Shown here one piece after another: positions 1 to 22,234 of a DNA stretch of 64,000 nt. The position numbers and the translations under genes were made by a program. Under the pieces are notes generated by a model. That model did not search any database. It was not told the DNA's origin and was given only the letters and a program-made list of their open reading frames with translations. Position 1 is the stretch's first letter. Each line of letters starts with the position of its first letter. Source of the DNA: Patescibacteria group bacterium (GTDB lineage: Bacteria > Patescibacteriota > JABMPQ01); assembly GCA_041749335.1 (NCBI GenBank), contig JBGTBM010000007.1:85408-149407 (forward strand), read 5' to 3'.

Positions 1-975
<975 letters not shown>

Positions 976-1362
976 AGGGAGATAATCAATAATCAATTTT
1001 ATTGATAATTGGTCGGTACTTTTTACTGACTGCTATCATCTTTTAGTTGTTAGAGAATATTGATAAATTTTGCGAATCTATTTATAATGGTTAAGAGTTA
1101 TTTAAAAATCTTAACTTTTTTTATATAATGAGCCTATATCCACTCGCCATCTGATTCACTTTTGAATTAGTCGGATGAGATTTGTGATCAGGCAAAGCGG
1201 TTTTTATTCAAATTTTGATAATTATAATTTACACTCGGGGCGATTAATATATTAACAATATGGGCTCGTAGCTTCCTTCGACAAGCTCAGGACAAGCTGT
1301 TCTTATAAAATATTTTTTTAACAAAAAAGAGGAAAAGCATTATTACCAAAAATATTTATCAA

Positions 1363-1439
1363 GGGCTCGTAGCTCAGTTGGTTAGAGCGCGTCACTGATA
1401 ATGACGAGGTCGGAGGTTCAAATCCTCCCGAGCCCACCA
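1363..1439 (+). tRNA. tRNA-Ile (anticodon GAT), CCA encoded
   Basis: gggctcgtagctcagttggttagagcgcgtcactgataatgacgaggtcggaggttcaaatcctcccgagcccacca. Acceptor gggctcg/cgagccc, anticodon stem cgtca/tgacg, loop cTGATAa. Typical ITS tRNA. Confidence 0.9.
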
Positions 1440-1710
1440 TTTTACGCGTAGCGTAAAATGCCCTGCGTAGCTCGTATGAGCGGAGCATGGGCAAAAAGAA
1501 AAAAATATTGCATTAAATAACGGCTACGCTCCAAATGGCACAGCCATTTTACTTAAGCGGAACTTCGAATGGCGTAGCCATGAGAAGTAGAAGAATGTTT
1601 TTCGAAGCTCTTGCCGTCGCATAGCCGCTATGGCGAAGCACGGTTAGCGAAGAAGGGCGTATATAATTATATTTATTCTACGCTTCAAATGGCGTGGCCA
1701 AATGATTAAA
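1440..1710. repeat. Cluster of short hairpin / GCGTAGC motifs in the 16S-23S spacer
   Basis: tttacgcGTAgcgtaaa hairpin at 1441-1457. Then ATGGC-NNN-GCCAT mini-hairpins: tccaaatggcacagccat at 1530-1547, cgaatggcgtagccatg at 1566-1582, caaatggcgtggccaaatg at 1686-1704. The 7-mer GCGTAGC (or its reverse complement) occurs 5 times in 250 bp. Confidence 0.6.
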
Positions 1711-1717
1711 GGAGGAA

Positions 1718-1960
1718 ATGTATTACGTATACATTATTAAAAGTATCATTTATCCAAATAAAATTTATACCGGATATACGAAGGATTTAAGACAAAGAAT
1801 ACTTGATCACAATAATGGCAAGAATGTATCTACCGGAAAATATAAACCTTGGGAGTTGAAATTTTATTGTGGATTTCGGAATAAATATAAGGCTTTAATG
1901 TTTGAAAAATACTTGAAAACATCCTCAGGCATCGCATTTAAAAACAAAAGGCTAATATAA
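1718..1960 (+). CDS. Small GIY-YIG nuclease-superfamily protein (YhbQ/UPF0213-like, 80 aa)
   Basis: YVYIIKS...KIYTGYTKDLRQRILDHNNG matches the GIY-(10-11 aa)-YIG motif followed by a conserved Arg and the H/N region. The ORF sits in the rRNA spacer. Confidence 0.6.
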   Translation: MYYVYIIKSIIYPNKIYTGYTKDLRQRILDHNNGKNVSTGKYKPWELKFYCGFRNKYKALMFEKYLKTSSGIAFKNKRLI

Positions 1961-1964
1961 AAAT

Positions 1965-2213
1965 ATGAGATTTTTTTTAGGATTATTAGGAATTGGCATT
2001 GGAATAGTTCTTTCGCTCAAATACGAATGGCTTTTGAATAATTTTGGTAGAATTCCATCAGTAGAGAAATATTTAGGTAGCTTTGGTGGAAGCCGGCTAT
2101 TTTATCAGTTGTTGGGAGTACTCATTATATTTTTTTCCGCGCTGTATATGACCGGGATGCTAGGCAGATTAGTGGAGGCAATATTTTCACGCCTCTTTGG
2201 AATAGGTGCATAA
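1965..2213 (+). CDS. Small hydrophobic membrane protein, unknown function
   Basis: The 82-aa ORF is almost entirely two predicted TM helices. Its stop overlaps the next ORF's start (ATGA-type overlap). Confidence 0.4.
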   Translation: MRFFLGLLGIGIGIVLSLKYEWLLNNFGRIPSVEKYLGSFGGSRLFYQLLGVLIIFFSALYMTGMLGRLVEAIFSRLFGIGA

Positions 2214-2808
2214 ATATTTTATGAATAAATTTTGGTTGTATTTAGTTAGACTAATATTCCTGGCGCTGATATTATTTGAAGCAGCTAATCTTTTTCAGAT
2301 TATAAAATTTGACTTGGATTATAGTTGGTTCGGATTGATTATAACTGCTTTGGCGGTATGGGCGAGTTTAGAAGTTGTCTACTACTTACATCGAAGTAAG
2401 TTTAGTAAAAATATACCCGGCTTGGTAATAATTGTTCCGACTTCAAGCATATTGATTGATGCTTTAGGCGATATATTGAGATATTACAGCAAATTTGAAT
2501 GGTATGATCAGGCGGCTCATTTTATCGGGGGTATGGCGGTGGCGTTGGTAATTTTTTATGTTGTTAGAGTATATGCTAAATATAAAGGATATAAAATGGG
2601 GAATGGTTTTATCGCTCTTTATGCTATTTTCGGAACAGCTTTTTTCGCTGCCTTATACGAGATTGAAGAATATGCCGAAACAATACTTTTAAAAAATAAT
2701 CGCTTGGGTGATAGACTAGACACCCCCAATGATATATTGTTAACAATAATTGGCGGAGCAATTGGAGCATTAATTATTTTATTGTATTTACAAATTAAGA
2801 AAAAATAA
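2206..2808 (+). CDS. Polytopic membrane protein, unknown function (200 aa)
   Basis: There are 5-6 hydrophobic segments. It is translationally coupled to the previous ORF. No recognisable catalytic motif. Confidence 0.5.
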   Translation: MHKYFMNKFWLYLVRLIFLALILFEAANLFQIIKFDLDYSWFGLIITALAVWASLEVVYYLHRSKFSKNIPGLVIIVPTSSILIDALGDILRYYSKFEWYDQAAHFIGGMAVALVIFYVVRVYAKYKGYKMGNGFIALYAIFGTAFFAALYEIEEYAETILLKNNRLGDRLDTPNDILLTIIGGAIGALIILLYLQIKKK

Positions 2809-2835
2809 TTACTTTAATATTATCCTGGCCTGAAT

Positions 2836-2895
2836 GGGCCCGTAGTATCTTGATAAGAGCGTCCCGATGTTGCATCGGGAAGGTAAGGAGTTCAC
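2836..2895 (+). pseudogene. Degenerate tRNA-Ala-like remnant (partial duplication of the tRNA-Ala 5' region)
   Basis: The 30-bp string aatattatcctggcctgaatgggcccgtag at 2811-2845 is repeated at 2917-2951, where it leads into the intact tRNA-Ala. The first copy continues as gggcccgtag + a 6-bp hairpin (cccgat/atcggg) + aggtaaggagttcac, which resembles a variable loop and T-arm but has no 3' acceptor. Confidence 0.5.
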
Positions 2896-2941
2896 AATTA
2901 GTTATTACAATATTATAATAAAATATTATCCTGGCCTGAAT

Positions 2942-3014
2942 GGGCCCGTAGCTCATCTGGTAGAGCGCCTGTTTTGCACACAGGAGGTGAGGAGTTCGAG
3001 TCCCCTCGGGTCCA
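2942..3014 (+). tRNA. tRNA-Ala (anticodon TGC)
   Basis: gggcccgtagctcatctggtagagcgcctgttttgcacacaggaggtgaggagttcgagtcccctcgggtcca. The G3:U70 Ala identity pair is present, the anticodon loop is ttTGCac, the discriminator is A, and CCA is not encoded. Confidence 0.9.
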
Positions 3015-3036
3015 TTTAGTTCGGGATTTTTTATTT

Positions 3037-3113
3037 GAGCGTGTAGCTCAGTTGGTTAGAGCGTTACGTTGACATCGTAGAGGTCAGAGGTTCGAATCCT
3101 CTCACGCTCACCA
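3037..3113 (+). tRNA. tRNA-Val (anticodon GAC), CCA encoded
   Basis: gagcgtgtagctcagttggttagagcgttacgttgacatcgtagaggtcagaggttcgaatcctctcacgctcacca. Acceptor gagcgtg/cacgctc, anticodon loop ttGACat. Confidence 0.88.
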
Positions 3114-3195
3114 TGTTATGAAAATAACATTGTGAAAAGATTAACTTAACAATAATACTTTTGATAGCGAAGTAGACGGAATACTACTTTGATAT

Positions 3196-3253
3196 GGTAG
3201 AAGTCGGACCTGCCTGCCGGCAGGCAGGGGTTCAATTCCTCCTCTACCCACCA
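3196..3253 (+). other. tRNA-like 3' fragment (T-arm + acceptor + CCA) preceded by a perfect 20-bp palindrome
   Basis: ggggttcaattcctcctctacccacca resembles a T-loop (TTCAATT), a 3' acceptor strand and ACCA. It is preceded by cctgcctgccggcaggcagg (3209-3228, a perfect palindrome). No convincing D-arm or 5' acceptor strand. Not tmRNA: no tmRNA 5' domain or tag ORF. Confidence 0.35.
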
Positions 3254-3259
3254 TTTTTC

Positions 3260-3294
3260 GTCCCGCTAAGCGGGACTCCAAATGGCACAGCCAT
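3260..3294 (+). repeat. Hairpin gtcccgcTAAgcgggac followed by an exact copy of the 18-mer tccaaatggcacagccat
   Basis: The 18-mer at 3277-3294 is identical to 1530-1547. Confidence 0.7.
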
Positions 3295-3320
3295 AAAAGT
3301 AAAAATACTTTATATCATAA

Positions 3321-3347
3321 AAAACAGCAATCACGCTGTTTTTTTAT
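3321..3347 (+). terminator. Rho-independent terminator after the spacer tRNA cluster
   Basis: aaaacagc-aatcac-gctgtttt (8-bp stem) followed by a T-run. Confidence 0.55.
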
Positions 3348-3609
3348 CTAAAAATCGGAAAGAATGGGAAAATAATCTTGAAAAAGGCTTGACAAAAAGT
3401 TAATAATATGATAGCATATAAATAAGAATTTCAAGCACTTTTACAAAATATAATATTTAAAATTAAACTGGCCATAGCTAAAAGCAGCTTGTTTTAAGCG
3501 GTTTCTAGCTGTGGCTATAATGATGTAGCCAGAAGCGGGAAATTTTCTAAGGTATGCTGAGGCGAGCGCAAAAAAGCGCTTGTGGGGGCATATCAAGGAG
3601 GAAGACAGA

Positions 3610-4202
3610 TGGGAAAAAGTAATAAGCAGAAATCAGAAGCAGTGACCGGATTGGGACTCGGACTGGGCATGCTCACTCTGGCGGACCAAGTCCGCAAGGA
3701 GATGGGTGTCAGCGACGAGCTGTTCCATCGCCTCACGACCGAAGATGGGCGGCAGGACTGGAAGAAGCTTTTCACCGGTATGCAGGAGGATGACGGCAAG
3801 AAGCACGTCATTGACTGCGATGCCAACCCCTTCGTTCCGGAAGGCTGGGAAGTGATTGAGCACCGGAAGGGCGGGGAGTTCCAGTGGGATCCTACCAAGG
3901 TCGAGCTCTATCTCTGCGACGAGCAGAAGAGCGAATGGATCAAAGGAAACGAGCTTAGAAAGAAGCTCGAGGGCAAACCTGTCCTCAACGCCTGCGTACT
4001 GGATTACCTGCACGCGCATCCCGAACTCATCCCCAACGAGTGGAAAGGCAAGTACATCTTCTTTTGGGGGACGATCTATCGCTTCCAGGATGGCCGTCTC
4101 TCTGTCCGTTCTCTCGGCTTGTGCGCTGATCGGTGGTCCCGGCTTGCCTCTTGGCTCGGCGATCGCTGGTACGACTACGATCCGGCTGTCCTCTGCAAGT
4201 AG
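3610..4202 (+). CDS. Hypothetical protein encoded on a GC-rich (~58% GC) segment; putative horizontally acquired gene
   Basis: Strong SD aggagg sits 8 nt upstream of ATG 3610; the ORF-track start at 3582 is in frame, but 3610 has the SD. GC content is far above that of the flanking DNA. The high GC generates long spurious ORFs in other frames (3593..3898-, 3633..4019-, 3856..4215+). No recognisable domain in the protein. Confidence 0.6.
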
Positions 4203-4261
4203 CTCTTGGTGCTAGAAACTATGTTCTTTCCTAACTTTAGATCTTGAACTTTAGACTTTAG

Positions 4262-4298
4262 CCCTGCGTTAATTATTATATTAATGCAGGGTTTTTTG
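4262..4298 (+). terminator. Strong rho-independent terminator after the GC-rich gene
   Basis: ccctgcgttaat / attaatgcaggg gives a 12-bp stem (one G-U pair) with loop tattat, followed by T6. Confidence 0.75.
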
Positions 4299-4462
4299 TT
4301 ATATTCAAAACAATATATATATATATCAGGAAATTGTTAAATTGTTTTTATGATATCTTGTTCTAGTGTTTTTGTGATTTATCCTGATACAAAATTACCT
4401 CCATAATATTTCTACAATGATACATAAATTAGTGGTATAATAAATTAAGAAATCCCAAATAT

Positions 4463-7400
4463 TTGGATATGTTTTTGAATATAAAAACACTAAGAATTAT
4501 CAAGAAAATATTTATCGCCGCTTTTTTTGGCGTTTTTTTATTTCCATTAATGATCAACGCGCAAGGCGGAGTGTGGGAAAATATTTTTCCCGGATCATTA
4601 AGTTTAACGGCAAATAATGAAGAGGTCGAAATCATTGAATACAAGGGAGATATTTATGCCGGGATCGGGGTGGGAGGCGAGTCGCAGGTTTATCGGTATA
4701 TAAGTGGTGATAATTGGGAGCAGGTTAATAAAAATGCGTTTGAAATTGATGTGGAGCGGGGAGTGGCGTCTATGGCCGTGCATAATGGATATTTATATGT
4801 GGGCGATCGGTTTGATTTGGGGGGCGGATTTGTATTGCGCACCAAAGCGCAGGGCGGCCCGCCTTTTACTGATTGGACCCAAGTGAATATCGGCGGGTTT
4901 GGCGATGTTAATAATCAACAAATATCCGACTTAAAATCTTTTGGCAGCTTTCTTTATGCCGCTACTAAAAATTCAATAACCGGTACGGAAATCTGGCGGA
5001 CGCAAGAGGCGGGGGGTCCGCCCTATACCGATTGGACGCAAGTTAATTTAGACGGTTTTTCTGATGTTAATAATGTAGATACGCCATTTTTAGGTATTTA
5101 CGATGGATACTTATATGCTTCTACCGGTAAATCTTCTGGCGCGGGCGAAGTATGGCGTACAAACAATGGAATCAATTGGTCGCAAGTGCAAACCGATGGC
5201 TTTGGGAATTTAAGTAATTATGCTATGTCGTCTTTCGGGTCTTTTGATAATTCACTAATTGTCGGCTCTGCAAATTTAAACGGCGGCAATTTATTTAAAA
5301 CCATAAACGGCACTTTTTGGAGCGTGGTGAATGCTAACGGGTTTGGCGACACCAATAATAAATCCATTTTCCCTTTATTAAGTATCGGGAATTATTTATA
5401 TTTAGGAACGGAAAATAATTCAGCGGGAGCGGAAATTTATCGTACCGGCGATGGAATACATTTTACTCAAATTAATTCATCCGGATTTGGCGACAGTTCT
5501 TATAAAAGTTTTAAAGCTTTGGAAAATAGCGGCAATTTGTTTATTAATGCCAGCAATTCCGGCGGAGGACAAATTTGGGTGGATTATCCGCCGATTCCCG
5601 GTAATTTAACGGCATCTCAAAATATTAATGACCCGAATAAAATTAATATCACTTTTTCCGCGGATGATCAAAATAAAGCGGACAATTTATTAGCGCGGAT
5701 TGAGTATAATATAGGCAGCGGCTGGAAAAAAGCGACCATCATGGTTAATGACGCAGAAACCAGCGCTACTTACGGCGATCCCAAGGTTAATAATTCGCAG
5801 GATTTTCAAATTGGCGATTCTTTGGGATATATCACCGCATCGACAGGATTAAATACCGTTAAGACAGTTTGGGATTACAGCGTGGATGAACCGAATGTCA
5901 ATACCAATAACGCGCAATTAAGGGTAAAGCTGGACGATCAAATTTTGGAAAGTTCAGATATTACCTCCAATCAATTTTCAATAACTTCAGTATTGCCGGT
6001 ATCATTAATAAAATCATATTCTATTAACAGTCCGGCACCGGCGCCGCCTGCCGACAGCGAGGATAATATTTTTATAACTTCCGCCGGATCTTTGATAAAA
6101 AATATTGGCGGCAATATCAATAAACTAACGCCGGGAAATATTTTCAATATTAACTATTTATTTTACGCTTATTTTGTTTTAGCAATTATACTAGTCATTT
6201 TTATTTCTATTTATTGGTTTTTAAAAAAACAATATTATTACCACTCCAAGAATAGATTACGCCTATCATCCGCCGTTTTTTTCTTAATTTTTAATTTGGG
6301 CTTATTGGGAATATTTTCGTTATTGCAGCCGGTTAAATATTTATCGGCTTCTCCTTACGATGTATTTCCGCGGGACATTATTACTTACCGCATTGAATAT
6401 AAAAATTCATCAAATCAAGACATTCATGATTTGTATATATTGGATGAAATTCCTCAATATTCAACGTATGTCGCAGGATCAATGAATTTAAATGGCGCCT
6501 TGATTACAGATGAACTGGATTTTGACTCCGGAGACTTCAATATCTCGAATCAAAATAAAGTAACATTTTATGTTGGATCGGTAGGAGCCAATAATTCCGG
6601 TTATGTTGAATTTAGGGTTCAGGTTAATGCCAATGCTCCCATGGGCGGGGTGATAGAAAATCAGGCCAGAGGAGCTTTTAATCCGGGGAATATCTTAATT
6701 ACCAGCAACATCATTCAAAATTTTGTGGTAGCTACCGGATCAATTTCCGGCAAAGTGTTTTACGATAACAACCGAGACGGCCAGATTAATTCAAATGATT
6801 GGGGCATTGAAAATGCGCAGGTGAAGCTCTATGAAGATCGGGACCATAATGGATTATTGGATACGGCAGTTGATTATTTTGTTGATAGTAAATCAACTGA
6901 CCAGAATGGTGATTATCATTTTACGGGACTTTCAGCGCAATATTATTTATTTTTTGTTGAAAGCTATTCTTTACCGTCGGGATATATTTTGACAACGGGT
7001 AATATTCCGGCCCAAGCGGTGCTTACGGCTAGCGACCAGCAATATCAAAATGCCAATTTTGGTTATTTTAATCAGCCTCAACTGCCGGTTACTCCCGATA
7101 TCCCGGTAATACCTTCCATTCCTTCCACTTTTGAACCTATCCCTGATAATACCCCTGACGATGAGCAAGAAGAGCCGCCAATTATTGAAGAAGAAGACGA
7201 GGAACCGATAGAAATTCCAGATCGAGAGGAGCCAATTGAACCAATAGAACAAGATAAGCCGATAAAAATTGAAACTGAAGACGTTAAGCCGATTGAAATT
7301 GAAAAACCGGATGAGCCCGGAATTGAAAAAAGAAACTGGCGGGATTATTTAACTTTTTCCCTGCCGATTTTTGCCGCTTTATCTTTAGCTAATTTATTTT

Positions 7401-8359
7401 TTAGCGTTCCCTTTTCCGCTTTGGCAAACTTTTTATATTATTTATTCCAGCTAATCACCCAGCCGTTTTTATTATTAACGCGTGAAAGAAAAAGAGAATT
7501 GGGAGCGGTGTATGATTCGTTAACCAAGCTGCCGCTTGACTTAGCGTTAGTCAGATTATTTGACAAAGACACCGGAAAATTAGTGGAAACCAGAGTTACT
7601 AACAGCAGGGGGCAATATTTGTTTGTCGCGGAAAAAAATAAACAATATTATTTATCTGTCCAAAAAGAAAATTATTATTTTCCTTCAAAACTTTTGGAAT
7701 TTAAGCCCGACGACGATGAATTTAAAAACTTATATTATGGTGGAATAATAAGTACGCAGGATCTTGAAAAAAATAATGGCAAAATTTCTAAAAATATTCC
7801 GTTGGATTTGGAGCGGGGGAAATCGTACGCAGCGGGAGTTCGACATAAAACAATTCAAACTGGAATTAATCAAATTGATGATTTGAAGTCAATGGATGAG
7901 GAAGCTAAATTAAATGAATATAAAAAAATTCGCAAACAATTTACCATAAAAAAAATCAGCCAGATAATCGCATATCTGGGGCCTGCCTACGGTTTATTGG
8001 TATTTATTTTAAATCCAAAGCTGATAACATTTATATTTTTAATTATACATATACTTTTATTGCTGCTATTTATGCGGCTGGCGCAGACTCGGGAAAATAA
8101 GTCCTGGGGAAAATCATTTGATTTGAATACTAAAAAGGGATTAGATAATTGCGTAGTTAGATTATTTGACCAGCAATATGGTAAATTGCTATTTACTACT
8201 TTGAGTAAATCTGATGGCCGCTATGGATTTTTGGCGGGGAAAAATAATTATTTAATTTCGGCGTACAGGGATTTTTATCGCATGCCTCAAGAAAAATTGG
8301 AGATACAAGGCCGGGAAAACGGTATAATTAATAAAGATATTGGACTGGAAAAAAAATAG
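4463..8359 (+). CDS. Giant (1298 aa) secreted/membrane-anchored multidomain surface protein
   Basis: N-terminal signal peptide. Five or six ~48-aa propeller-like repeats (GF.D.NN...LY..T.....G.E.WRT). A DUF11-like 'conserved repeat domain' (YRIEYKNSSNQD...YVAGSMNLNG). Three SdrD-B/Cna-B/carboxypeptidase-regulatory-like domains (DGQINSNDWGIENAQVKLYED..., LVRLFDKDTGKLVETRVTNSRGQYLF, VVRLFDQQYGKLLFTTLSKSDGRYGF). An acidic Pro/Glu-rich linker (EEPPIIEEEDEEPIEIPDREEPIEPIE). Several internal hydrophobic helices. Confidence 0.8.
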   Translation: MDMFLNIKTLRIIKKIFIAAFFGVFLFPLMINAQGGVWENIFPGSLSLTANNEEVEIIEYKGDIYAGIGVGGESQVYRYISGDNWEQVNKNAFEIDVERGVASMAVHNGYLYVGDRFDLGGGFVLRTKAQGGPPFTDWTQVNIGGFGDVNNQQISDLKSFGSFLYAATKNSITGTEIWRTQEAGGPPYTDWTQVNLDGFSDVNNVDTPFLGIYDGYLYASTGKSSGAGEVWRTNNGINWSQVQTDGFGNLSNYAMSSFGSFDNSLIVGSANLNGGNLFKTINGTFWSVVNANGFGDTNNKSIFPLLSIGNYLYLGTENNSAGAEIYRTGDGIHFTQINSSGFGDSSYKSFKALENSGNLFINASNSGGGQIWVDYPPIPGNLTASQNINDPNKINITFSADDQNKADNLLARIEYNIGSGWKKATIMVNDAETSATYGDPKVNNSQDFQIGDSLGYITASTGLNTVKTVWDYSVDEPNVNTNNAQLRVKLDDQILESSDITSNQFSITSVLPVSLIKSYSINSPAPAPPADSEDNIFITSAGSLIKNIGGNINKLTPGNIFNINYLFYAYFVLAIILVIFISIYWFLKKQYYYHSKNRLRLSSAVFFLIFNLGLLGIFSLLQPVKYLSASPYDVFPRDIITYRIEYKNSSNQDIHDLYILDEIPQYSTYVAGSMNLNGALITDELDFDSGDFNISNQNKVTFYVGSVGANNSGYVEFRVQVNANAPMGGVIENQARGAFNPGNILITSNIIQNFVVATGSISGKVFYDNNRDGQINSNDWGIENAQVKLYEDRDHNGLLDTAVDYFVDSKSTDQNGDYHFTGLSAQYYLFFVESYSLPSGYILTTGNIPAQAVLTASDQQYQNANFGYFNQPQLPVTPDIPVIPSIPSTFEPIPDNTPDDEQEEPPIIEEEDEEPIEIPDREEPIEPIEQDKPIKIETEDVKPIEIEKPDEPGIEKRNWRDYLTFSLPIFAALSLANLFFSVPFSALANFLYYLFQLITQPFLLLTRERKRELGAVYDSLTKLPLDLALVRLFDKDTGKLVETRVTNSRGQYLFVAEKNKQYYLSVQKENYYFPSKLLEFKPDDDEFKNLYYGGIISTQDLEKNNGKISKNIPLDLERGKSYAAGVRHKTIQTGINQIDDLKSMDEEAKLNEYKKIRKQFTIKKISQIIAYLGPAYGLLVFILNPKLITFIFLIIHILLLLLFMRLAQTRENKSWGKSFDLNTKKGLDNCVVRLFDQQYGKLLFTTLSKSDGRYGFLAGKNNYLISAYRDFYRMPQEKLEIQGRENGIINKDIGLEKK
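4855..5085 (+). repeat. Intragenic tandem DNA repeats (~150-bp period) encoding the propeller-like blades
   Basis: ggcggcccgccttttactgattggacccaagtgaat...gatgttaataat is followed by ggggggtccgccctataccgattggacgcaagttaat...gatgttaataat. Confidence 0.7.
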
Positions 8360-8480
8360 TATGAAATTAGGCTTGACATATATTTTTACTGATTATAATA
8401 TTAGACAAGTATTAATATGAATAAATTTGACGCCAACTTAAAGAAAGCGACCTGATTATCCTATAGTGGGAGACTTTATG

Positions 8481-8508
8481 GTCGCATAATATGCGGCTTT
8501 TTTGTTCA
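8481..8508 (+). terminator. Weak hairpin + T-run downstream of the giant gene
   Basis: cgcata-a-tatgcg followed by gcttttttg. The stem is short, so confidence is low. Confidence 0.3.
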
Positions 8509-8591
8509 GATTAATGTGTGAACGTTGACAATTTATCAAGAATTTATACACAGGTAAAAAAATTTAGCAATTATTAATTGCTAGTCAATTA

Positions 8592-11484
<2,893 letters not shown>

Positions 11485-11752
11485 ACTAAAGCTTTTAAAA
11501 TCGCTTATATCGATGGCGGTTTTAAAGGTTTTAAAAATTGACTAGCGATTTATAGTTGTTATTAATATAATGATGAAGAATCAGCGAAGACGCGGTGTAA
11601 ATGATTAATTGAAAAAATGAATTTTAGGAAATTATTTTCTTCAGTAAAATTAATATTGGTTTTATTAATTATTGGAATATTCGTTTCAATTGCATTTTAT
11701 GTGACTTCGCTAAATTCTTTGGCGCACAATATATTTTAACTTGGCTGCAGCA

Positions 11753-11866
<114 letters not shown>

Positions 11867-11884
11867 TATTGCAGCTAAATAAAA

Positions 11885-11908
11885 TCACCCCACGAAGGGT
11901 GTTTTTTA
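11885..11908 (+). terminator. rRNA operon terminator
   Basis: caccc-cacgaa-gggtg followed by T7. Confidence 0.7.
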
Positions 11909-11932
11909 TTTATGAAACTGTTTATAACTTTT

Positions 11933-11961
11933 TTGATATTAGATCTTAAATTTGGTATATT
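11933..11961 (+). promoter_or_regulatory. Sigma70-like promoter for galU
   Basis: TTGATA, a 17-bp spacer, then TATATT, about 40 nt upstream of ATG 12000. Confidence 0.5.
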
Positions 11962-11999
11962 AAATAAGTAATTTAGCAATATAAATAATTTGTTAATCT

Positions 12000-12875
12000 A
12001 TGTCTAAAATAAGAAAAGTCGTGATTCCGGTAGCAGGATATGGAACCAGATTTTTACCGGCCACCAAAGCGCAGCCAAAAGAATTAATGCCGGTAGTTGA
12101 TAAGCCGATTGTGCAATATGTAGTGGAGGAGGCAGTAGCTTCGGGCATTACCGATGTTATTTTAATAACCGGTGCGAGTAAACATGCGGTGGAAAATCAT
12201 TTTGACTATAATTACGAGCTTCAGGCCATGCTTAAAAAACAAGGCAAAGAAGAAAAGAGAGCTGAAATTAAAGAAATTGCGGACATGGCTAATTTTATTT
12301 ATGTTCGTCAAAAAGGACCTTATGGCAATGGTACTCCGATTTTATGTGCCAAAGAAGTAGTTGGTGATGAACCCTTTGCGGTATTGTGGGGCGATGAATT
12401 TTTTTATTCTACCGGAAAGCCCAGATTAAAGCAGCTGATTGAAGTTTACGATAAATATACAGATCCGGTTTTAACCGCCAAGGAAACTGATGATGAAGGT
12501 ACGAGGAAATATGGAATATTGGACGCAGTGAAAGTTGAAGATAATGTTTTCCAAGTAAATAAAATAGTAGAGAAGCCGGGTCCGGAAAAAGCGCCGTCGC
12601 ACTTGGCATCATTGGGAGGTTTTGTTTTAACGCCGGATATTTTTGAGGAGCTGGAAAAAACAAAATTGGGAAAAGATAATGAACTTTGGCTGGTGGATGC
12701 CATATTTTCCTTGTCTAAAAAAAGGCCGATTTATGCCTGCGAAGTAGATGCCGACTACTATGACACCGGTTCAAAGATAGGCTGGCTTAAAGCTAATATT
12801 GATATGGGTCTGAAACATCCGGAAGTAAAAGACGACCTAATAAAACTCATAAAAGAAAAAAATAACTTAATATAA
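12000..12875 (+). CDS. galU: UTP--glucose-1-phosphate uridylyltransferase
   Basis: VIPVAGYGTRFLPATKAQPKELMPVVDKPIVQYVVEEA is the classic GalU N-terminal nucleotide-binding signature. Length 291 aa. Confidence 0.88.
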   Translation: MSKIRKVVIPVAGYGTRFLPATKAQPKELMPVVDKPIVQYVVEEAVASGITDVILITGASKHAVENHFDYNYELQAMLKKQGKEEKRAEIKEIADMANFIYVRQKGPYGNGTPILCAKEVVGDEPFAVLWGDEFFYSTGKPRLKQLIEVYDKYTDPVLTAKETDDEGTRKYGILDAVKVEDNVFQVNKIVEKPGPEKAPSHLASLGGFVLTPDIFEELEKTKLGKDNELWLVDAIFSLSKKRPIYACEVDADYYDTGSKIGWLKANIDMGLKHPEVKDDLIKLIKEKNNLI

Positions 12876-12877
12876 AA

Positions 12878-14191
12878 ATGAAAAATAAAAGCAAGTTTTT
12901 CCGCATCGGAGTCATACTGTTTGCCATTTTACTGTTTGCCGGTTTTGGTTGTAAGGATGATAGCCAAAAACAAGACGCGGAGCAATTAGAACCGGTAGAA
13001 ATTGTTATTTGGAGCTTATGGGATGAAAAAGAAGTATATGATCCTTTGTTGAATGAATATACAAAGCTTAATCCCAATATTCGCTTTGATTACAAAAAAT
13101 TTACTTTTGAAGAATATGAACAGGCTGTTGTTAATGCATTGGCCGCTGGCAAGGGCCCGGATATTTGGTTGATGCACCATACTTGGCTGCCAAAACATCT
13201 GGATAAATTAGCTTCTATGCCGGAAGGCAAGATGTCAGCTTTTGAATATTCCGATACCTTTGTCGATGTGGCATATAATGATTTTGTTATCGACAATCAA
13301 ATATATGGAATTCCGCTTTCAGTCGATACGCTGGCAATGTATTACAATAAAGATTTATTTAATTCAGCAGCCATTACTAATCCTCCGGCCAATTGGCAAG
13401 AATTCAAGGATGATGCCAGGGCTTTAACCAAAATTAATGAGTATGGCGATATTCAGCAGGCCGGGGCGGCCATCGGTACCGCTAGAAATATAAACCGAGC
13501 AGTAGATATTCTATACTTGCTGATGATCCAAAACGGTACGGAAATGACTGATGAAAACAATACTAATGTTTTATTTAATCAGTCTGCTACGGCCGCGGAC
13601 GGAGAAGAATATATTCCCGGATTGGACGCTTTGATTTTTTATACCGATTTTGCCAATCCTAAAAAAACCATCTATACCTGGAATCCCACCATGCACTATA
13701 ACACTGACGCTTTTATTGAAGAGAGCGTAGCAATAATGTTTAATTATTCTTATCAAAATGAGGTAATTAGAGGCAAGGCTCCTCGCATGAATTATGGCAT
13801 TGCGCCCGCTCCGCAAATTGAGGGATCGTCCAAGAGATATGATTTTGCCAATTATTGGGGATTTACGGTAGCTAATAATTCAAAAAATCAGGAAATCGCC
13901 TGGGATGTGCTTACCTTTTTAGGCAAGCAAGAAAATGTTAAAGCATATACCGAAACCACTAAAAGGCCGGCTTCTCGTAGAGATGTTTTGAACGAACAAT
14001 TGCAAGATCCTGACCTAAAGGTTTTTGCCGAGCAAGCATTATCGGCCCAGAGCTGGCATCAGGTTGATCCCGGGCAAATTGAAGCGATTATGGCCGACAT
14101 GATCGAAAAAGTCGCTTTAGGAGAGATTGAAGCCGAAGAAGCCTTAAATGACGCAGTCAATCGAGTGGATGTTTTAATGAGTAATCAATAA
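12878..14191 (+). CDS. Lipoprotein, extracellular solute-binding protein (ABC sugar-transporter SBP family 1-like); no cognate permease nearby
   Basis: Signal peptide with a Cys (LFAGFGCKDD). Size and composition (aromatic- and Asn-rich, ~437 aa) fit family 1. The call is heuristic. Confidence 0.55.
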   Translation: MKNKSKFFRIGVILFAILLFAGFGCKDDSQKQDAEQLEPVEIVIWSLWDEKEVYDPLLNEYTKLNPNIRFDYKKFTFEEYEQAVVNALAAGKGPDIWLMHHTWLPKHLDKLASMPEGKMSAFEYSDTFVDVAYNDFVIDNQIYGIPLSVDTLAMYYNKDLFNSAAITNPPANWQEFKDDARALTKINEYGDIQQAGAAIGTARNINRAVDILYLLMIQNGTEMTDENNTNVLFNQSATAADGEEYIPGLDALIFYTDFANPKKTIYTWNPTMHYNTDAFIEESVAIMFNYSYQNEVIRGKAPRMNYGIAPAPQIEGSSKRYDFANYWGFTVANNSKNQEIAWDVLTFLGKQENVKAYTETTKRPASRRDVLNEQLQDPDLKVFAEQALSAQSWHQVDPGQIEAIMADMIEKVALGEIEAEEALNDAVNRVDVLMSNQ

Positions 14192-14196
14192 TAGAT

Positions 14197-14940
14197 ATGA
14201 TTAAGTTGGAAAAAATAATAATGATATTGTTAATATTTGGATTATTTGCTGTATTTCAATTTCCAAATATTACATATGCAGAAGATGAAAAAATTTTAGA
14301 CAAAGGAGCATATTGTGGATTTTATCAACCTTTTTATGTTACGCCAACCATGAAATCTAAAACATTGGAAGGTTATAAATGTATAGAAGGTACAGTTTGT
14401 GGCTACGCAAGCGTCTGCGATGAGCTGCCCGCAAGTGCTACTGAGGCGGGATATAAGGGCAAACCAAGATTTGCATGTATACCTCCCGAGTGGGTTCAAC
14501 AAAGACAGGATCAATTAACTGCCTGTATTCAAGGAGGTCCAGAAAAGGCTGCCGAAGAAGCAAAAAAAACTAAAGCAGACAATGCTTGTCTTGCTCAAGC
14601 TACCTCGACAGAAAGGGGGATTTTTACTAGAGACCTATCACCAAAATGTTTTGCTTGCGGGGAATGTACTCAAAAAGATGTTTTCCAGGAATTTATTAAT
14701 ATTTTTACCTTTATTCTACAAATTTCCGGAAGTTTAGCTGTATTAGTCATAGTAATTGGGGGAATTATGTACATGACAGCGGCCGGCGATCAGCAAAAAA
14801 CACAAAAGGCCAAAGGAGCTTTGACAGCGGCTATTATAGGTCTTATAATAGTTCTAGTGGCATTCACCTTGATAACATTTGTGATGAATTTATTGGGGTA
14901 TTCAAATGCCGGTTCATGGTACAGTCCCAGTTTAAAATAA
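14197..14940 (+). CDS. Secreted Cys-rich protein with a C-terminal TrbC/VirB2-like (T4SS-pilin-like) two-helix domain; paralog 1 of 4
   Basis: N-terminal signal/TM segment. About 140 aa containing 10 Cys (YCGF, KCIEGTVCGYASVCDE, FACIPP, TACIQ, NACLAQ, PKCFACGEC). C-terminal LAVLVIVIGGIMYMTAAGDQQKTQKAKGALTAAIIGLIIVLVAFTLITFV is shared with the three downstream paralogs. Confidence 0.55.
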   Translation: MIKLEKIIMILLIFGLFAVFQFPNITYAEDEKILDKGAYCGFYQPFYVTPTMKSKTLEGYKCIEGTVCGYASVCDELPASATEAGYKGKPRFACIPPEWVQQRQDQLTACIQGGPEKAAEEAKKTKADNACLAQATSTERGIFTRDLSPKCFACGECTQKDVFQEFINIFTFILQISGSLAVLVIVIGGIMYMTAAGDQQKTQKAKGALTAAIIGLIIVLVAFTLITFVMNLLGYSNAGSWYSPSLK

Positions 14941-14944
14941 AAAT

Positions 14945-15358
14945 ATGTATAAAAATAAAATTATCGCTTTAGTAATTTTGATCATTTTTTCTAGTTTAAT
15001 TGTTTCCAATTTTGTATTGGCGCAAACTACTCCCAACGCTCCCAATATCCCATCAACATCAAATACTCCTAGCACCACCACGGGCACAAAAACATCAACT
15101 GCGACATTGACTAATCCTCTGTCGGTTAGTACGCCTGGGGCATTGATCGGAAATATTATTAAAACGTTAATGGGTGTCGTGGGGGTTGTGGCAGTTTTAA
15201 TGATTGTCTGGGGAGGTGTAATGTATATGACTTCGGCCGGCAGTGATGAAAAAATCGGCACAGCCAAGAAAATAATAACCGGAGCAATTATCGGCCTAGT
15301 GATATCAATATTGGCATATGTAATAATTGATTTTGTTATTAAAGCAATCGGAGGATAA
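14945..15358 (+). CDS. TrbC/VirB2-like pilin-like small protein (paralog 2); Thr/Ser/Pro-rich variable region
   Basis: Signal peptide; NAPNIPSTSNTPSTTTGTKTSTATLTNP; conserved C-terminal VGVVAVLMIVWGGVMYMTSAGSDEKIGTAKKIITGAIIGLVISILAYVIIDFV. Confidence 0.55.
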   Translation: MYKNKIIALVILIIFSSLIVSNFVLAQTTPNAPNIPSTSNTPSTTTGTKTSTATLTNPLSVSTPGALIGNIIKTLMGVVGVVAVLMIVWGGVMYMTSAGSDEKIGTAKKIITGAIIGLVISILAYVIIDFVIKAIGG

Positions 15359-15363
15359 ATATT

Positions 15364-15765
15364 ATGAAAACAAACTTGATAAATTTATTAGTGGTAATAC
15401 TAGCCTCATTATTTATTATATTTCCCATTGCACAGTTTTGCTATGCGGGCACTACTACCACTACCCCTTCAACTACCACCGGCTCTGACAAATACGGCCT
15501 TGGCGATGTAAAGAGTAGCGGACTGGTTACCAAAGATGCTACCGAAGTGGTCGGCAGTATTATTCAAACAATTATCGGGATCGTCGGTGTAATATTGGTA
15601 GTAGTACTTATTTATGGCGGAGTGCTCTATATGACTTCTGGAGGCAGTGAAGAGAAAACAAAAACTGCGAAAAAAGCGATAACCTATGGAATTGTCGGAA
15701 TAACTATTATTGCCCTGGCATTTGCAGTTACTCGCTTTGTGCTTGATGCGTTAATTAAACAATAG
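15364..15765 (+). CDS. TrbC/VirB2-like pilin-like small protein (paralog 3)
   Basis: Signal peptide; TTTTTPSTTTGS; conserved C-terminal VGVILVVVLIYGGVLYMTSGGSEEKTKTAKKAITYGIVGITIIALAFAVTRFV. Confidence 0.55.
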   Translation: MKTNLINLLVVILASLFIIFPIAQFCYAGTTTTTPSTTTGSDKYGLGDVKSSGLVTKDATEVVGSIIQTIIGIVGVILVVVLIYGGVLYMTSGGSEEKTKTAKKAITYGIVGITIIALAFAVTRFVLDALIKQ

Positions 15766-15796
15766 GATTAATAAAAATAAAATATATTGAAGGGAG

Positions 15797-16195
15797 GTGA
15801 TATCAGTGAAAAAATACATAAAGTTAATTTCAGCAAGCCTGGTAGCCGTTTTTGCGTTGGCGTTGGTTGTTCCTGCTGTAGCAGGTGCAGCCGCAACTCC
15901 TCCTACCAGTCCGACTGAATTACTAAATCAAACCGCAAATAAGTCAGGACAAACCCAAACTAGATCATTAACGGATATAATCGGTAACATTATTCAATGG
16001 ATTTTAGGCCTAGTTGGTGTGGTTTTGCTAATTATGTTTATTTATGGCGGTGTGCTTTATGCAACATCTGCCGGCAATGAAGATAAAGTAGAAACAGGCA
16101 AAAAGGTGATGCTATATGCTATTATCGGAGTGGTTATTATCGCTTTGGCGTTTGCCTTAACCAGATATGTAATCGATGCCTTATTTCAAGCGTAA
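15797..16195 (+). CDS. TrbC/VirB2-like pilin-like small protein (paralog 4)
   Basis: Signal peptide (AAATPPTSPTELLNQ); conserved C-terminal VGVVLLIMFIYGGVLYATSAGNEDKVETGKKVMLYAIIGVVIIALAFALTRYV. SD gaagggaggtg lies upstream. Confidence 0.55.
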   Translation: MISVKKYIKLISASLVAVFALALVVPAVAGAAATPPTSPTELLNQTANKSGQTQTRSLTDIIGNIIQWILGLVGVVLLIMFIYGGVLYATSAGNEDKVETGKKVMLYAIIGVVIIALAFALTRYVIDALFQA

Positions 16196-16210
16196 AAATT
16201 TAACAATTAT

Positions 16211-16245
16211 AAAACAGGCAATGTATACAGCCTGTTTTATTATTT
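16211..16245. terminator. Bidirectional terminator between the convergent pilin-like array and the GT-C gene
   Basis: aaaacaggc-(10 nt loop)-gcctgtttt with A/T runs on both sides. Confidence 0.55.
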
Positions 16246-17760
16246 TAGTTTATATATTAAAATGTTTTCATTTTCATAAATTGTTTCGAATCTGAAGTCT
16301 TTTTTAGCATAATCGACAAATTCAGAAAAATCTTTATTTATAAAAACATAGTCAGCCTTAAAGTCTTGTTTAATAATTTGATAAGAGTTCTCTAGCGATT
16401 GTTGAGAAAATAATTGATGCCACTTTTGATATAAATTATAATTATATTCTTTCATGAAATTAGGGTCCAGACCGGCAATGTAATAATTTTGATCATTGTA
16501 AAATAACAATTGCGGTGATTCGCTCCAGTCCAAATGATAAACAATTTCATTAGCCGGAATATTTTCTTTCATCCAAATACTGGCTTTCTTGATATTTGTT
16601 TTATCCTCTTTGTCATTATTGAGATTAAAATATACCGCTTGAAAATTATAAATGGCTGCGCTTGTAAGTAAAAAAATAATTAATAATTTTGAAGTATATT
16701 TATTTTTAAATAAAAATAATTTACCGATATATTTATTAATAGCAATATGATTATTTGTATATAAGTAAGCGGCCAGCAGGATAATTAGCGGAGCGCTATA
16801 TTCAATCATTTTTCTTACAACGATTGTCAGTATAAAAAAAATTACTGCGTTTAAAAATAAAAATAATGTTATTTTGCCAATTTTTCTATGTTTAATTTTG
16901 GTTAATAAAATTATAAAAATAGAAATGACAAAGAGCGCGATAATTATCAAAGAAGACGAGATTAAAAAACGTGGAGCAGACATATACCATTCAATTCCTA
17001 CCGGCATATTTGAAAAAGGGTCTTTTAAGGCAACTTGGTATAAATGAAAAAAAAGATGGTAAATATTTTTAGGAAAATATGGATTTAAAATTATGGCGAT
17101 AACAACTCCGGTAAGATAACAAAAAATCGGGTAAAATAAATCGGAGATTAATTTGGTATTTTTGGTTTTAAATAAATAGTAAACTTCAATCAGAGATTTA
17201 ATAGCAATGACAATGCCTAAAATAATAAATCCATCAAAGAGCCAAGCATAAAAAATAGTAAGCGGTATTAAATATATATAATTATTTTTAATCAGCAGAT
17301 AAATTCCTATTAGTAAAAGAATTAAAGCCAAGCTTTGCGCTCGCAGTAAGTTTAGCCGAAAAATAAAAAGCGAAGAGGAAAAAAGCAACAGCAGAGTCCA
17401 AAAGTGCGGAAACTTGATGTTAAGTTTTTTCAAAATAACAAAAAAAGCAATAAAAAAAGCGGCTGAAAAAATGATAGTAGCAATTTTAGCAGCTAAAAAT
17501 GGTTCTAATAATTTAAAAAAGGGCAGCAGTAATATATGAAAAAGAAGGTGATGCTCAACGAAATTATCATTTAATATGGTGTATTGCAGCCAGGGAAAAA
17601 TTTCAACCAACTTGCCGCTATCTAAAATAAGTTGAGCCATTTTGGCGTGATAATAGACATCGGTACATAAAAACTCATAAGCTTTAAATTGAATAATAGC
17701 TATAAATGAAATTACAGTTGTGATTAATATGATGTACTTTAAATAAAATTTTATACGCAT
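16240..17760 (-). CDS. Large polytopic membrane protein, putative GT-C-fold glycosyltransferase (PMT_2/ArnT/oligosaccharyltransferase-like)
   Basis: 506 aa with ~12 TM helices in the N-terminal 400 aa and a soluble C-terminal ~100 aa domain, an architecture typical of GT-C enzymes. No unambiguous catalytic motif was identified by eye. Confidence 0.35.
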   Translation of the reverse strand: MRIKFYLKYIILITTVISFIAIIQFKAYEFLCTDVYYHAKMAQLILDSGKLVEIFPWLQYTILNDNFVEHHLLFHILLLPFFKLLEPFLAAKIATIIFSAAFFIAFFVILKKLNIKFPHFWTLLLLFSSSLFIFRLNLLRAQSLALILLLIGIYLLIKNNYIYLIPLTIFYAWLFDGFIILGIVIAIKSLIEVYYLFKTKNTKLISDLFYPIFCYLTGVVIAIILNPYFPKNIYHLFFHLYQVALKDPFSNMPVGIEWYMSAPRFLISSSLIIIALFVISIFIILLTKIKHRKIGKITLFLFLNAVIFFILTIVVRKMIEYSAPLIILLAAYLYTNNHIAINKYIGKLFLFKNKYTSKLLIIFLLTSAAIYNFQAVYFNLNNDKEDKTNIKKASIWMKENIPANEIVYHLDWSESPQLLFYNDQNYYIAGLDPNFMKEYNYNLYQKWHQLFSQQSLENSYQIIKQDFKADYVFINKDFSEFVDYAKKDFRFETIYENENILIYKLK

Positions 17761-17800
17761 ATTTAAATCAATAATATCATTAAAGTGCTCATTGTTAAAT

Positions 17801-17836
17801 AAAAAAGCGGGATGTAGTTAATTGATAACATCCCGC
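17801..17836 (-). terminator. Rho-independent terminator of the minus-strand GC-rich operon
   Basis: On the minus strand: gcgggatgt-(12 nt)-acatcccgc followed by T6. Confidence 0.65.
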
Positions 17837-17869
17837 TATGAAAAAAATGAACGAAAGAACGTGGAAGGA

Positions 17870-18295
17870 CTAGAGAGGAGGATCAACGGCGGCGAAGTTG
17901 TAGAAGGGGTCCCTGCCTTTGTTCTGTTTGGGCTGACGAGAGGAGGGCTGGTAGGATTTCTGCTTTTTCTGCTGGGGGTAGGCGCGTCGCTGGTACTCAT
18001 GATACCGGCGGTTGCCTTCCATCTCTCTCGCGTGCATCCGCTGGATTGCCTCTTCACTCTCCTGTGTGAGCTTGTCTTGGCACCCTTTGATCGGTGTGAA
18101 GACGCAGGTGTAGAAAAGCACTCCAAAAACCAGTGGTACGAAAGTCCAGAAGAACAGCGGCTCCATCTTTTCAAAGTTGATAGTGAGACTGCGAGGAGCA
18201 GGCGGACTGTTTGAAACAGCAGCTTGCTTGCTTCGCGCCCGAAAAACCATAGCTGCCACGAAAATGATGCAGCCAACCAGGAATATGTATCCCAT
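17870..18295 (-). CDS. Membrane protein co-transcribed with the SPFH gene (possible NfeD/YqiJ-like partner)
   Basis: 141 aa. Two N-terminal TM helices, then a charged Gln/Arg/Lys-rich tail. GC-rich codon usage like the upstream SPFH gene. The overlapping + strand ORFs are judged spurious. Confidence 0.5.
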   Translation of the reverse strand: MGYIFLVGCIIFVAAMVFRARSKQAAVSNSPPAPRSLTINFEKMEPLFFWTFVPLVFGVLFYTCVFTPIKGCQDKLTQESEEAIQRMHAREMEGNRRYHEYQRRAYPQQKKQKSYQPSSRQPKQNKGRDPFYNFAAVDPPL

Positions 18296-18310
18296 GGGGC
18301 TTGCTCCTTT

Positions 18311-19869: not shown

Positions 19870-19902
19870 CGGGCGAGTTAAAACATCTAATTCGGAGCAA
19901 AT

Positions 19903-22192: not shown

Positions 22193-22234
22193 TAAAACAA
22201 AAATAACTTAAGGTCGTTGTTTTGTTTCCATGTT

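Follow-up and report, generated by a model that had tools for sequence, protein, structure and literature searches.

Protein genes in the 16S-23S rRNA spacer of a Patescibacteria bacterium: a probable stepwise opening of an ancestral rRNA operon

A Patescibacteria group bacterium has its only visible rRNA locus in a 64,000-nt stretch of contig JBGTBM010000007.1 (assembly GCA_041749335.1), referred to here as the window; all coordinates without another label are those of the window, + strand. Its genes for 16S and 23S rRNA lie 7,620 nt apart, which bears out the long spacer described in an earlier note on this DNA. The gene content named there was recovered as well by ARAGORN, Rfam, Pfam and the open reading frames (ORFs): tRNA-Ile, a GIY-YIG ORF, two membrane-protein ORFs, tRNA-Ala, tRNA-Val, a GC-rich gene and a surface-protein gene. 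The larger spacer ORFs (GIY-YIG, TM82, DUF2238, GC-rich and surface) all lie on the rRNA strand. Homologues were found for all five proteins, in genomes labelled Patescibacteria, Parcubacteria, Giovannonibacteria and similar. The loci of relatives compared with the window (L004, L006/L009, L007, L008, L010, L011, L023 and L069) were gathered in two ways: proteins were looked up by exact match, and a DUF2238 alignment was used to scan species-representative genomes. The features of the locus are the following:

1-975, +, 16S rRNA gene, 3' two-thirds, the 5' part lying beyond the window start (Rfam SSU_rRNA_bacteria)
976-1165, +, conserved block behind the 16S gene (81% identity to L069)
1262-1300, +, 12-nt copy of the tRNA-Ile 5' end joined to a short GC-rich repeat, CTTCCTTCGACAAGCTCAGGACAAGC (sequence reading)
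1363-1439, +, tRNA-Ile(GAT) (ARAGORN; Rfam tRNA, 77.9 bits)
1440-1717, +, array made up of short hairpins, TYCRAATGGCRYRGCC occurring three times, at 1530, 1564 and 1684 (motif count)
1718-1960, +, GIY-YIG nuclease-domain ORF, 80 amino acids (Pfam PF01541, E 9.9e-16, residues 1-70)
1965-2213, +, TM82, gene for a membrane protein of 82 amino acids (conservation)
2221-2808, +, gene for a DUF2238-family membrane protein, 195 amino acids (homologues, Pfam PF09997)
2816-2905, +, tRNA-Ala-like element (repeat and conservation)
2941-3015, +, tRNA-Ala(TGC) (ARAGORN; Rfam, 60.7 bits)
3037-3113, +, tRNA-Val(GAC), a replacement copy (ARAGORN; Rfam, 72.9 bits)
3150-3255, +, ancestral tRNA-Val pseudogene (alignment to the tRNA-Val of L007 and L069)
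3256-3350, +, two trailer hairpins and a terminator-like hairpin (3319-3347) closing the tRNA unit (fold -31 kcal/mol, z -6.6)
3351-4399, +, window-specific cassette (no counterpart in L004 or L069)
3609-4202, +, GC-rich ORF, 197 amino acids, orphan family (56.6% GC)
4469-8359, +, surface/membrane protein gene, 1296 amino acids, ATG at 4469 in a block that begins at 4400 (Pfam)
8360-8593, +, conserved 23S leader (79-83% identity to L004 and L069)
8594-11486, +, 23S rRNA gene, uninterrupted (Rfam LSU_rRNA_bacteria, model 1-2925, 2507 bits)
11487-11560, +, 23S 3' trailer with an internal hairpin and a 3' stem arm (near-identical in L004)
11617-11739, +, conserved 40-codon ORF with one predicted membrane helix (codon-position test, homologues)
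11754-11866, +, 5S rRNA gene (Rfam 5S_rRNA, 82.6 bits)
11886-11907, +, terminator-like hairpin closing the 23S-5S unit (-12.8 kcal/mol, z -3.8)

Positions 534-1533 of the SSU_rRNA_bacteria covariance model of Rfam were aligned to window 1-973 without insertion (968 bits), and the 16S 3' end (...GGATCACCTCCTTTCT, also given as ...CCTCCTTTCT) is at 975. The 23S 5' end is placed at about 8594-8596, and LSU model positions 1-2925 span 2,893 nt; this gene is 93.6% identical to that of L004. Interrupted rRNA models, the mark of an intron or intervening sequence, were found for neither gene in the window. Both models run through continuously, which rules out a giant rRNA insertion as an explanation of the spacer; a group I intron is ruled out by the same alignments, which also dispose of the case that rRNA sequence continues through 976-8591. 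A scan of the spacer with Rfam at E<=1 returned nothing besides the rRNAs and tRNAs, the leaders and tRNA-like relics matching no described RNA family. The canonical order of an rrn operon is kept, with tRNA-Ile before tRNA-Ala in the spacer and the 5S gene close behind the 23S (a gap of 267 nt). The spacer itself is not a canonical one, which would measure about 0.3-0.6 kb, at most 1.5 kb, and hold tRNA genes only; here six protein-coding ORFs lie in 7.6 kb.

Regions with rRNA genes are classic break and mis-join points of metagenome contigs, and the layout could reflect two loci, 16S-tRNA and X-23S-5S, falsely joined during assembly. Short-read contigs do break at 2942-2969, coinciding with a 30-nt exact repeat. 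Nevertheless, Logan contigs assembled independently from SRR28170473/4 match window 1894-2969, 2942-9123 and 11783-22875 at 100%; L003 covers tRNA-Ala to 530 nt into the 23S gene at 100%, and L001 covers GIY-YIG to tRNA-Ala. Since independent contigs match at 100%, the junction between the surface gene and the 23S gene is real. The locus L069, a 7.1-kb contig from the unrelated run SRR24923521 (another species from another sample, surface protein 57% identical), carries in one piece the order 16S 3' end, tRNA-Ile, GIY-YIG, TM82, DUF2238, tRNA-Ala, tRNA-Val, surface gene and 23S, with a spacer of 6,249 nt; for window 976-1893 contiguity is backed solely by homology to it. The order from GIY-YIG to GalU in L004 is also that of the window. 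A mis-join of two loci, named in the earlier note as a possible refutation, is thus excluded by the 100% Logan contigs and the continuous L069, and an assembly artefact appears extremely improbable. Further scans of metagenome contigs gave 0 matches to a 23S 5'-end pattern and, with a surface-protein alignment, a single distant match of 24% identity. A lineage-specific pattern of 16S helix 45 had 0 matches in a collection of genome contigs, which therefore does not contain the source genome.

The TM82 and DUF2238 genes occupy one slot in the relatives. The order 16S, tRNA-Ile, TM82 (in most lineages), DUF2238 and tRNA-Ala or tRNA-Val is found in L006/L009, L008, L010, L011 and L023, and L007 and L004 have the same slot as far as their contigs reach. 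TM82 was found in L004, L006, L007, L008, L010 and L069, its amino acid identity to the window protein being 100% in L007, 87.8% in L004 and 59.8% in L006. Its conservation between the window and L004 is similar to that of the housekeeping protein GalU (86.5%), and the nucleotide differences fall as 14/3/44 on the three codon positions; a weak CvpA-like Pfam match of TM82 lies under the cut-off. The DUF2238 protein of the window scores 22.7 bits against PF09997 (cut-off 26.4), a family precomputed for all its homologues, and is 47% identical to that of L006; protein identities across the relatives are 47-95%. Adjacency to rRNA genes is confined to the nearest DUF2238 homologues (at least 41% identity), all of them in this slot, and those below about 40% identity are located elsewhere in their genomes, never beside rRNA. 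Because the slot is kept in L006 at 83.4% 16S, 60% TM82 and 47% DUF2238 identity, the TM82/DUF2238 pair is, judged by this synteny, an ancient resident of the rRNA locus.

The GIY-YIG protein consists of the catalytic domain only. Its orthologue is present at the same site in L069 and in L004 (63.8% amino acid identity; not annotated by the gene caller), where the hairpin array is also partly conserved. In L007, which is otherwise 95% identical to the window, the array and the gene (window 1445-1952) are cleanly missing, with precise junctions. Divergence among its copies in the window, L004 and L069 is about that of the neighbouring genes; the pattern of presence and absence suits inheritance with loss no less than homing. 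The hairpin motif TYCRAATGGCRYRGCC has four copies in the 64 kb (1530-1546, 1564-1580, 1684-1700 and 3277-3293; 0.04 expected), all of them in the spacer, behind tRNA 3' ends or ahead of the GIY-YIG gene, and similar copies are present in L004, L069 and L007.

A signal peptide, several membrane segments and SdrD_B and CarboxypepD_reg domains are predicted in the surface protein. Orthologues with 57-58% identity lie directly upstream of the 23S gene in L004 and L069, and in these two loci, as in the window, the surface gene is followed by 23S-5S-GalU. In L070 and L071, homologues of 32-34% identity have no rRNA gene nearby. By this shared position the surface gene is evidently common to a narrower clade formed by the window, L004 and L069.

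The cassette at 3351-4399 comprises a promoter-like TTGACA-17-TAGCAT (3389-3417), a leader, the GC-rich ORF (3609-4202) and a strong terminator hairpin (4260-4299; 14 bp, -21.6 kcal/mol, z -6.5). The third-position GC content of the ORF is 71.7% versus 30-38% in all its neighbours (the GC content of the window is 34.7%), and the gene was not found in L004, L069 or L007; the foreign look that the earlier note had given it thus holds. Only about 100-180 nt lie between the tRNA-Val terminator and the upstream region of the surface gene in L004 and L069. On the grounds of composition and distribution, the GC-rich gene is a recent horizontal acquisition confined to the window's lineage. Patescibacteria contain over 300 members of its family, the closest being P0002 (70% identity); four others are on viral contigs of IMG/VR (L072-L075), with a GC content roughly that of their own flanks. 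No match to the protein was obtained in Pfam, PHROG or NCBIfam, and its AlphaFold2 model, though confident (pLDDT 86), has no significant structural neighbour in PDB or BFVD. The high GC content is confined to the ORF, the promoter, leader and terminator of the cassette not being GC-rich. Residues W80, H85 and R167 and the motif FFWGT are among the positions that are invariant in the family.

Two tRNA-like relics accompany the functional tRNA genes, neither of which was matched by the Rfam tRNA search (E<=1). The first, at 2816-2905, shares its 5' flank and first 10 nt with the true tRNA-Ala (the exact repeat 2816-2845 = 2922-2951), has a stem of its own (CCCGAT/ATCGGG) and is without the 3' acceptor strand. 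It is kept in the window, L007 (943-1020), L069 (about 1700-1760) and L004 (about 1440-1530), and, genome by genome, its 5' flank agrees with the one ahead of the true tRNA-Ala. The earlier note had called it a tRNA-Ala remnant; conservation in four lineages marks it rather as a maintained element or a repeated gene-conversion product than as a fresh scar. Such an element could be a processing signal for the 3' end of an mRNA or a product of gene conversion.

The second relic (3150-3255), previously described as a tRNA-like 3' fragment, can be aligned to the intact tRNA-Val of L007 and L069, whose 3' trailer and terminator it shares. It is the ancestral tRNA-Val gene with a decayed 5' half and a T-arm split by a perfect 20-nt palindrome, CCTGCCTGCCGGCAGGCAGG, at 3209-3228. 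The terminator behind tRNA-Val is at the same position in L004, L069 and L007. The functional tRNA-Val at 3037-3113 differs from that of L007 and L069, and L004 has a third variant; the presence of old and new copies in the window points to fast turnover or replacement of this gene. At one position there are accordingly three clearly different tRNA-Val(GAC) sequences (window 3037-3113, L004 1675-1751, L069 2042-2116). In L007 (1331-1350) the palindrome likewise interrupts the T-arm of a tRNA-Ala-like copy, and it has a diverged copy in L004 (about 1503-1522) and an intergenic one in a Giovannonibacteria genome (L058 600-619). It could represent a very small mobile palindrome able to inactivate tRNA genes. 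The GC-rich element at 1262-1300 likewise has relatives in L007 (1436-1490) and L058 (about 640-670), such elements being found repeatedly between genes at other Patescibacteria loci.

Neither an integrase nor a recombinase or transposase was detected among the spacer ORFs with Pfam, PHROG and NCBIfam, and none of the blocks is bordered by a duplicated attachment site. Integration of an element at a tRNA gene was rejected, as no integrase is present and the relics are the old tRNA-Val and the tRNA-Ala-like copy, not border repeats.

These observations are probably best explained by an ancestral 16S-tRNAIle-tRNAAla-23S-5S operon that was pulled apart stepwise by co-oriented protein genes and is now divided into several transcription units. 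The order of events can be read from the distribution of the genes. TM82 and DUF2238 entered between tRNA-Ile and tRNA-Ala in an old ancestor. A GIY-YIG gene lies between tRNA-Ile and the membrane genes in the window, L004 and L069, being cleanly missing in L007, and the surface gene is placed between tRNA-Val and the 23S gene in the clade of the window, L004 and L069. Finally, in the window's lineage only, the gene with foreign codon usage was added together with its promoter-like site and terminator, and the 20-nt palindrome inactivated the old tRNA-Val, which another tRNA-Val replaced.

The earlier note had described this part of the locus as colonised by accessory DNA, and a normal operon colonised recently, with most of the 7.6 kb of accessory or mobile origin, would be the corresponding explanation. 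The GC-rich gene, foreign and specific to the window, does suit it, as do the presence and absence of GIY-YIG between close relatives and the tRNA relics, palindromic insertion and short GC-rich repeats that crowd the spacer. Yet about 6.2 of the 7.6 kb (GIY-YIG, TM82, DUF2238 and surface genes) is syntenic in L069 and L004 with a divergence of the vertical type, the composition of these genes is host-like, the TM82/DUF2238 pair is found in the same tRNA-flanked slot of far more distant lineages, and neither an integrase or transposase nor a duplicated attachment site was found. A recent colonisation is therefore very unlikely. The four genes are, by their conservation and synteny, long-standing residents and not recent colonists; colonisation holds for the GC-rich gene and is not supported for the rest, TM82/DUF2238 being present in five further lineages and the GIY-YIG and surface genes in L004 and L069. 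The comparison with related genomes that the earlier note had called for shows a lineage-typical layout shared with relatives, only the GC-rich cassette being specific to the window.

Transcription of the divided locus would most likely proceed in four units. The first would include 16S, tRNA-Ile, GIY-YIG, the membrane genes, tRNA-Ala and tRNA-Val and end at the conserved terminator behind tRNA-Val. In the relatives, 180-290 nt separate the 16S gene from tRNA-Ile, a distance ordinary for co-transcription with 16S; tRNA-Ile is followed by the next ORF after 15 nt (L007), 21 nt (L009) or 2-14 nt (L011), and the DUF2238 ORF is followed by tRNA-Ala after 41-49 nt (L008-L010). Gaps of 15-21 nt around the tRNA-flanked ORFs leave no room for promoters, which would mean that the membrane-protein mRNA is made together with the tRNAs. 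Judging from this spacing only, TM82 and DUF2238 are probably co-transcribed with the flanking tRNAs and freed by tRNA processing, the mRNA being cut out by RNase P and RNase Z. The conserved block 976-1165 between the 16S gene and this part of the spacer holds a match to TTGATA-17-TATAAT at 1060-1088 in the promoter scan, followed by a hairpin with a T-run at 1089-1123 whose fold is weak (-6.4 kcal/mol).

The GC-rich gene alone would form the second unit. The surface gene would be the third, transcribed from its own -10 element, a TATAAT at 4436-4441 that is conserved in the alignment with the relatives. The fourth unit would comprise the 23S gene, the 40-codon ORF and the 5S gene, starting from a promoter-like element 220 nt upstream of the 23S. 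Terminator-like hairpins, detected by scanning and folding at 3319-3347, 4260-4299, 8480-8504 and 11886-11907, agree with the internal terminators reported earlier.

The leader of the 23S gene was compared with its counterparts in L004 (5740-5969) and L069 (6133-6366). It is 79-83% identical to them, compared with 64-66% over the final 600 nt of the surface gene and 90% at the start of the 23S gene. All three lineages keep TTGACA (8373-8378) with TATAAT/TAATAT (8394-8401); the conserved elements include CTTGACAT, with a TATAAT 15-17 nt on. Further downstream are a mini-ORF of 12 codons (8417-8455) with conserved start and stop positions and a conserved terminator-like hairpin with T6 (8480-8504). 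The sequence GCGACC (8448-8453), which overlaps the stop codon of the mini-ORF, can pair with GGTCGC (8480-8485), and in the minimum free energy (MFE) folds of all three lineages it is paired with the 5' arm of the terminator-like hairpin. GCGACC competes for this arm, and the two hairpins are mutually exclusive. A coding signature of the mini-ORF is not supported by the differences at the codon positions (2/2/3, 3/0/4 and 3/2/1). As a hypothesis drawn from three sequences and with no coding signature, the leader resembles a translation-dependent attenuator.

Excision of the 23S rRNA could proceed via a long stem formed by its own flanks. The 5' arm starts at 8566 and the 3' arm is at 11536-11560; the cofold of the flanks (8566-8603 with the trailer) has -60.7 kcal/mol in the window and -66.1 kcal/mol in L004. 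Because of the conserved promoter-like leader, the stem made from its own flanks and the closing terminator, 23S-5S looks like a self-contained unit. The earlier suggestion that 16S and 23S are not parts of one precursor is made probable by the conserved TTGACA/TATAAT with its leader and by this stem, and separate transcription of the two genes is likely.

Because everything is co-oriented, read-through from the 16S is a live alternative. A single precursor could extend from the 16S promoter to the 5S gene, antitermination passing the terminators and the mRNAs and tRNAs being cut out later; rRNA antitermination complexes do read through intrinsic terminators. The position of all spacer features on the rRNA strand and the very tight gaps within the block from tRNA-Ile to tRNA-Val are in keeping with it, and at the 23S leader read-through is structurally plausible since the MFE folds sequester the terminator arm in an alternative helix. 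Lui et al. (2021, PMC8172020) conservatively counted such arrangements as operonic. Several features speak for separation: the strong 14-bp terminator at 4260-4299 and the terminator behind tRNA-Val conserved in four lineages, the conserved TTGACA/TATAAT before the 23S and TATAAT before the surface gene, and a 23S processing stem formed entirely from local flanks. Moreover, in L006, L008 and L010 no 23S gene was found within 10 kb downstream of the 16S-side unit, which implies that this unit works without 23S in relatives. Transcription of the whole locus as one operon is thus considered unlikely.

The division of the operon into several transcription units has to be weighed against a number of points. 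The promoters, terminators and processing sites are all predictions from sequence, and the promoter scan found 42 sites against 31 expected from shuffles, only a slight enrichment. The co-orientation of all spacer genes with the rRNAs and the capacity of antitermination for a single long precursor count in the same direction, and the conserved hairpin and T-run at 8480-8504 is awkward between the proposed promoter and the 23S gene unless it is regulated or bypassed. The long helix of an RNase III processing stem is found for 23S, and the 5' flank of the 16S gene is outside the window. Finally, the 23S-proximal half of the layout is backed by two relatives only (L004 and L069), and the contig of L004 stops before the 16S gene, its full spacer being outside that contig.

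The 23S-5S spacer, described earlier as normal, contains the 40-codon ORF. Between the window and L004 (9284-9406) its differences are distributed as 11/4/26 over the codon positions (chi-square p 1e-4), no indels occur, the codon changes comprise 15 synonymous and 16 mostly conservative ones, and none of the alternative frames is open. When proteins were searched exhaustively, a third member, P0286, was recovered, likewise of exactly 40 amino acids (E 1.5e-8). It is likely that the ORF encodes a genuine small protein within the 23S-5S spacer. A literature search on ORFs in 23S-5S spacers returned nothing relevant.

A wider possibility, doubtful at present, is that the rRNA locus doubles as an expression platform serving a handful of small conserved membrane proteins, in which the TM82-DUF2238 mRNA would belong to the 16S/tRNA precursor and be freed via tRNA punctuation, the 40-amino-acid membrane peptide translated from RNA of the 23S-5S spacer and 23S synthesis gated by a switch in the leader. 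If so, a leader switch with a short ORF overlapping the antiterminator/terminator would couple rRNA transcription to ribosome availability, and a mitochondrion-like tRNA punctuation would operate inside a bacterial rRNA spacer.

Split rRNA genes have been described for related bacteria. According to Brewer et al. (ISME J 2020; 10.1101/705046), rRNA genes are unlinked when the spacer exceeds 1,500 bp, Patescibacteria are among the clades with a high share of unlinked genes, the trait is phylogenetically conserved, and most unlinked pairs are far apart, at a mean of about 410 kb. The locus of the window, with 7,620 nt, is unlinked by this definition, and the trait is conserved in its relatives. 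It differs from most of those pairs in that 16S and 23S are still neighbours on one strand at a distance of 7.6 kb, the classical spacer tRNAs keeping their order. On this comparison the locus represents an intermediate state, the 23S gene already being more than 10 kb away in L006, L008 and L010.

Lui et al. (2021, PLoS Comput Biol, PMC8172020) reported unlinked rRNA genes in 27 of 34 circularised genomes of the candidate phyla radiation (CPR) and described loci in which tRNAs and protein-coding genes of one orientation lie between 16S and 23S and between 23S and 5S, the protein often being an endonuclease (Fig 3C). The window has this arrangement, its 16S, 23S and 5S genes lying on one strand together with spacer tRNAs and protein genes, with six ORFs in the 16S-23S spacer and one in the 23S-5S spacer. 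Since the window fits the descriptions of both studies, the phenomenon is known: split CPR rRNA loci with spacer tRNAs and protein genes have been published, and the bare observation adds one more documented case in Patescibacteria. Lui et al. give categories and counts and no particular conserved cargo, whereas the cargo here (the tRNA-flanked TM82/DUF2238 pair, the surface protein and the 40-codon ORF) is specific and was traced across lineages. What is new is this conserved cargo, the stepwise history and the evidence that 23S has a promoter and leader of its own.

Coding sequences directly flanked by tRNAs also occur in mixed tRNA-mRNA operons, such as thrU-tyrU-glyT-thrT-tufB of E. coli, and in the tRNA punctuation of mitochondria. 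As in those systems, the mRNA ends would come from RNase P and RNase Z; here the unit lies inside an rRNA spacer and its co-transcription is deduced from the 15-21 nt spacing only. Insertions and homing-endonuclease genes in CPR rRNA genes are attributed to Brown et al. (2015) as cited in 10.1101/705046. The window resembles them in having a small nuclease gene at the rRNA locus, its protein sharing the catalytic domain of GIY-YIG homing endonucleases (PF01541, E 9.9e-16), and L004 has a GIY-YIG ORF inside a 23S helix. Unlike them, the rRNA genes of the window are uninterrupted, and its GIY-YIG gene is in the spacer behind tRNA-Ile and not in an intron.

The locus can be viewed as an rRNA operon caught mid-disintegration, in which the canonical order is readable and the inserts are datable as old, intermediate and recent. 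It provides protein genes, probably expressed from rRNA/tRNA precursors, on which such expression can be tested, together with a conserved promoter and leader specific to 23S. In practice, long-amplicon methods spanning 16S, the internal transcribed spacer and 23S, as well as rRNA-operon databases, will miss or mishandle this lineage, and short-read assemblies are interrupted within the spacer where the tRNA-Ala flank is duplicated.

Intervening sequences of 23S rRNA are known, and an insert of roughly 295 nt in the 23S gene of L004 (L004 7724-8018; window equivalent 10347-10364) looks like one, being too short for a group I intron. It lies in the apical loop of a helix, has an 11-bp closing stem (CCCCGCCCCTT/AAGGGGCGGGG) and consists almost wholly of an ORF for a GIY-YIG protein of 87 amino acids, 40% identical to that of the window. 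Downstream of the rRNA locus of the window, GalU and a solute-binding protein gene are followed by four tandem T4SS_pilin (PF18895) paralogues (14197-16195, +), and the remainder of the window contains many glycosyltransferases.

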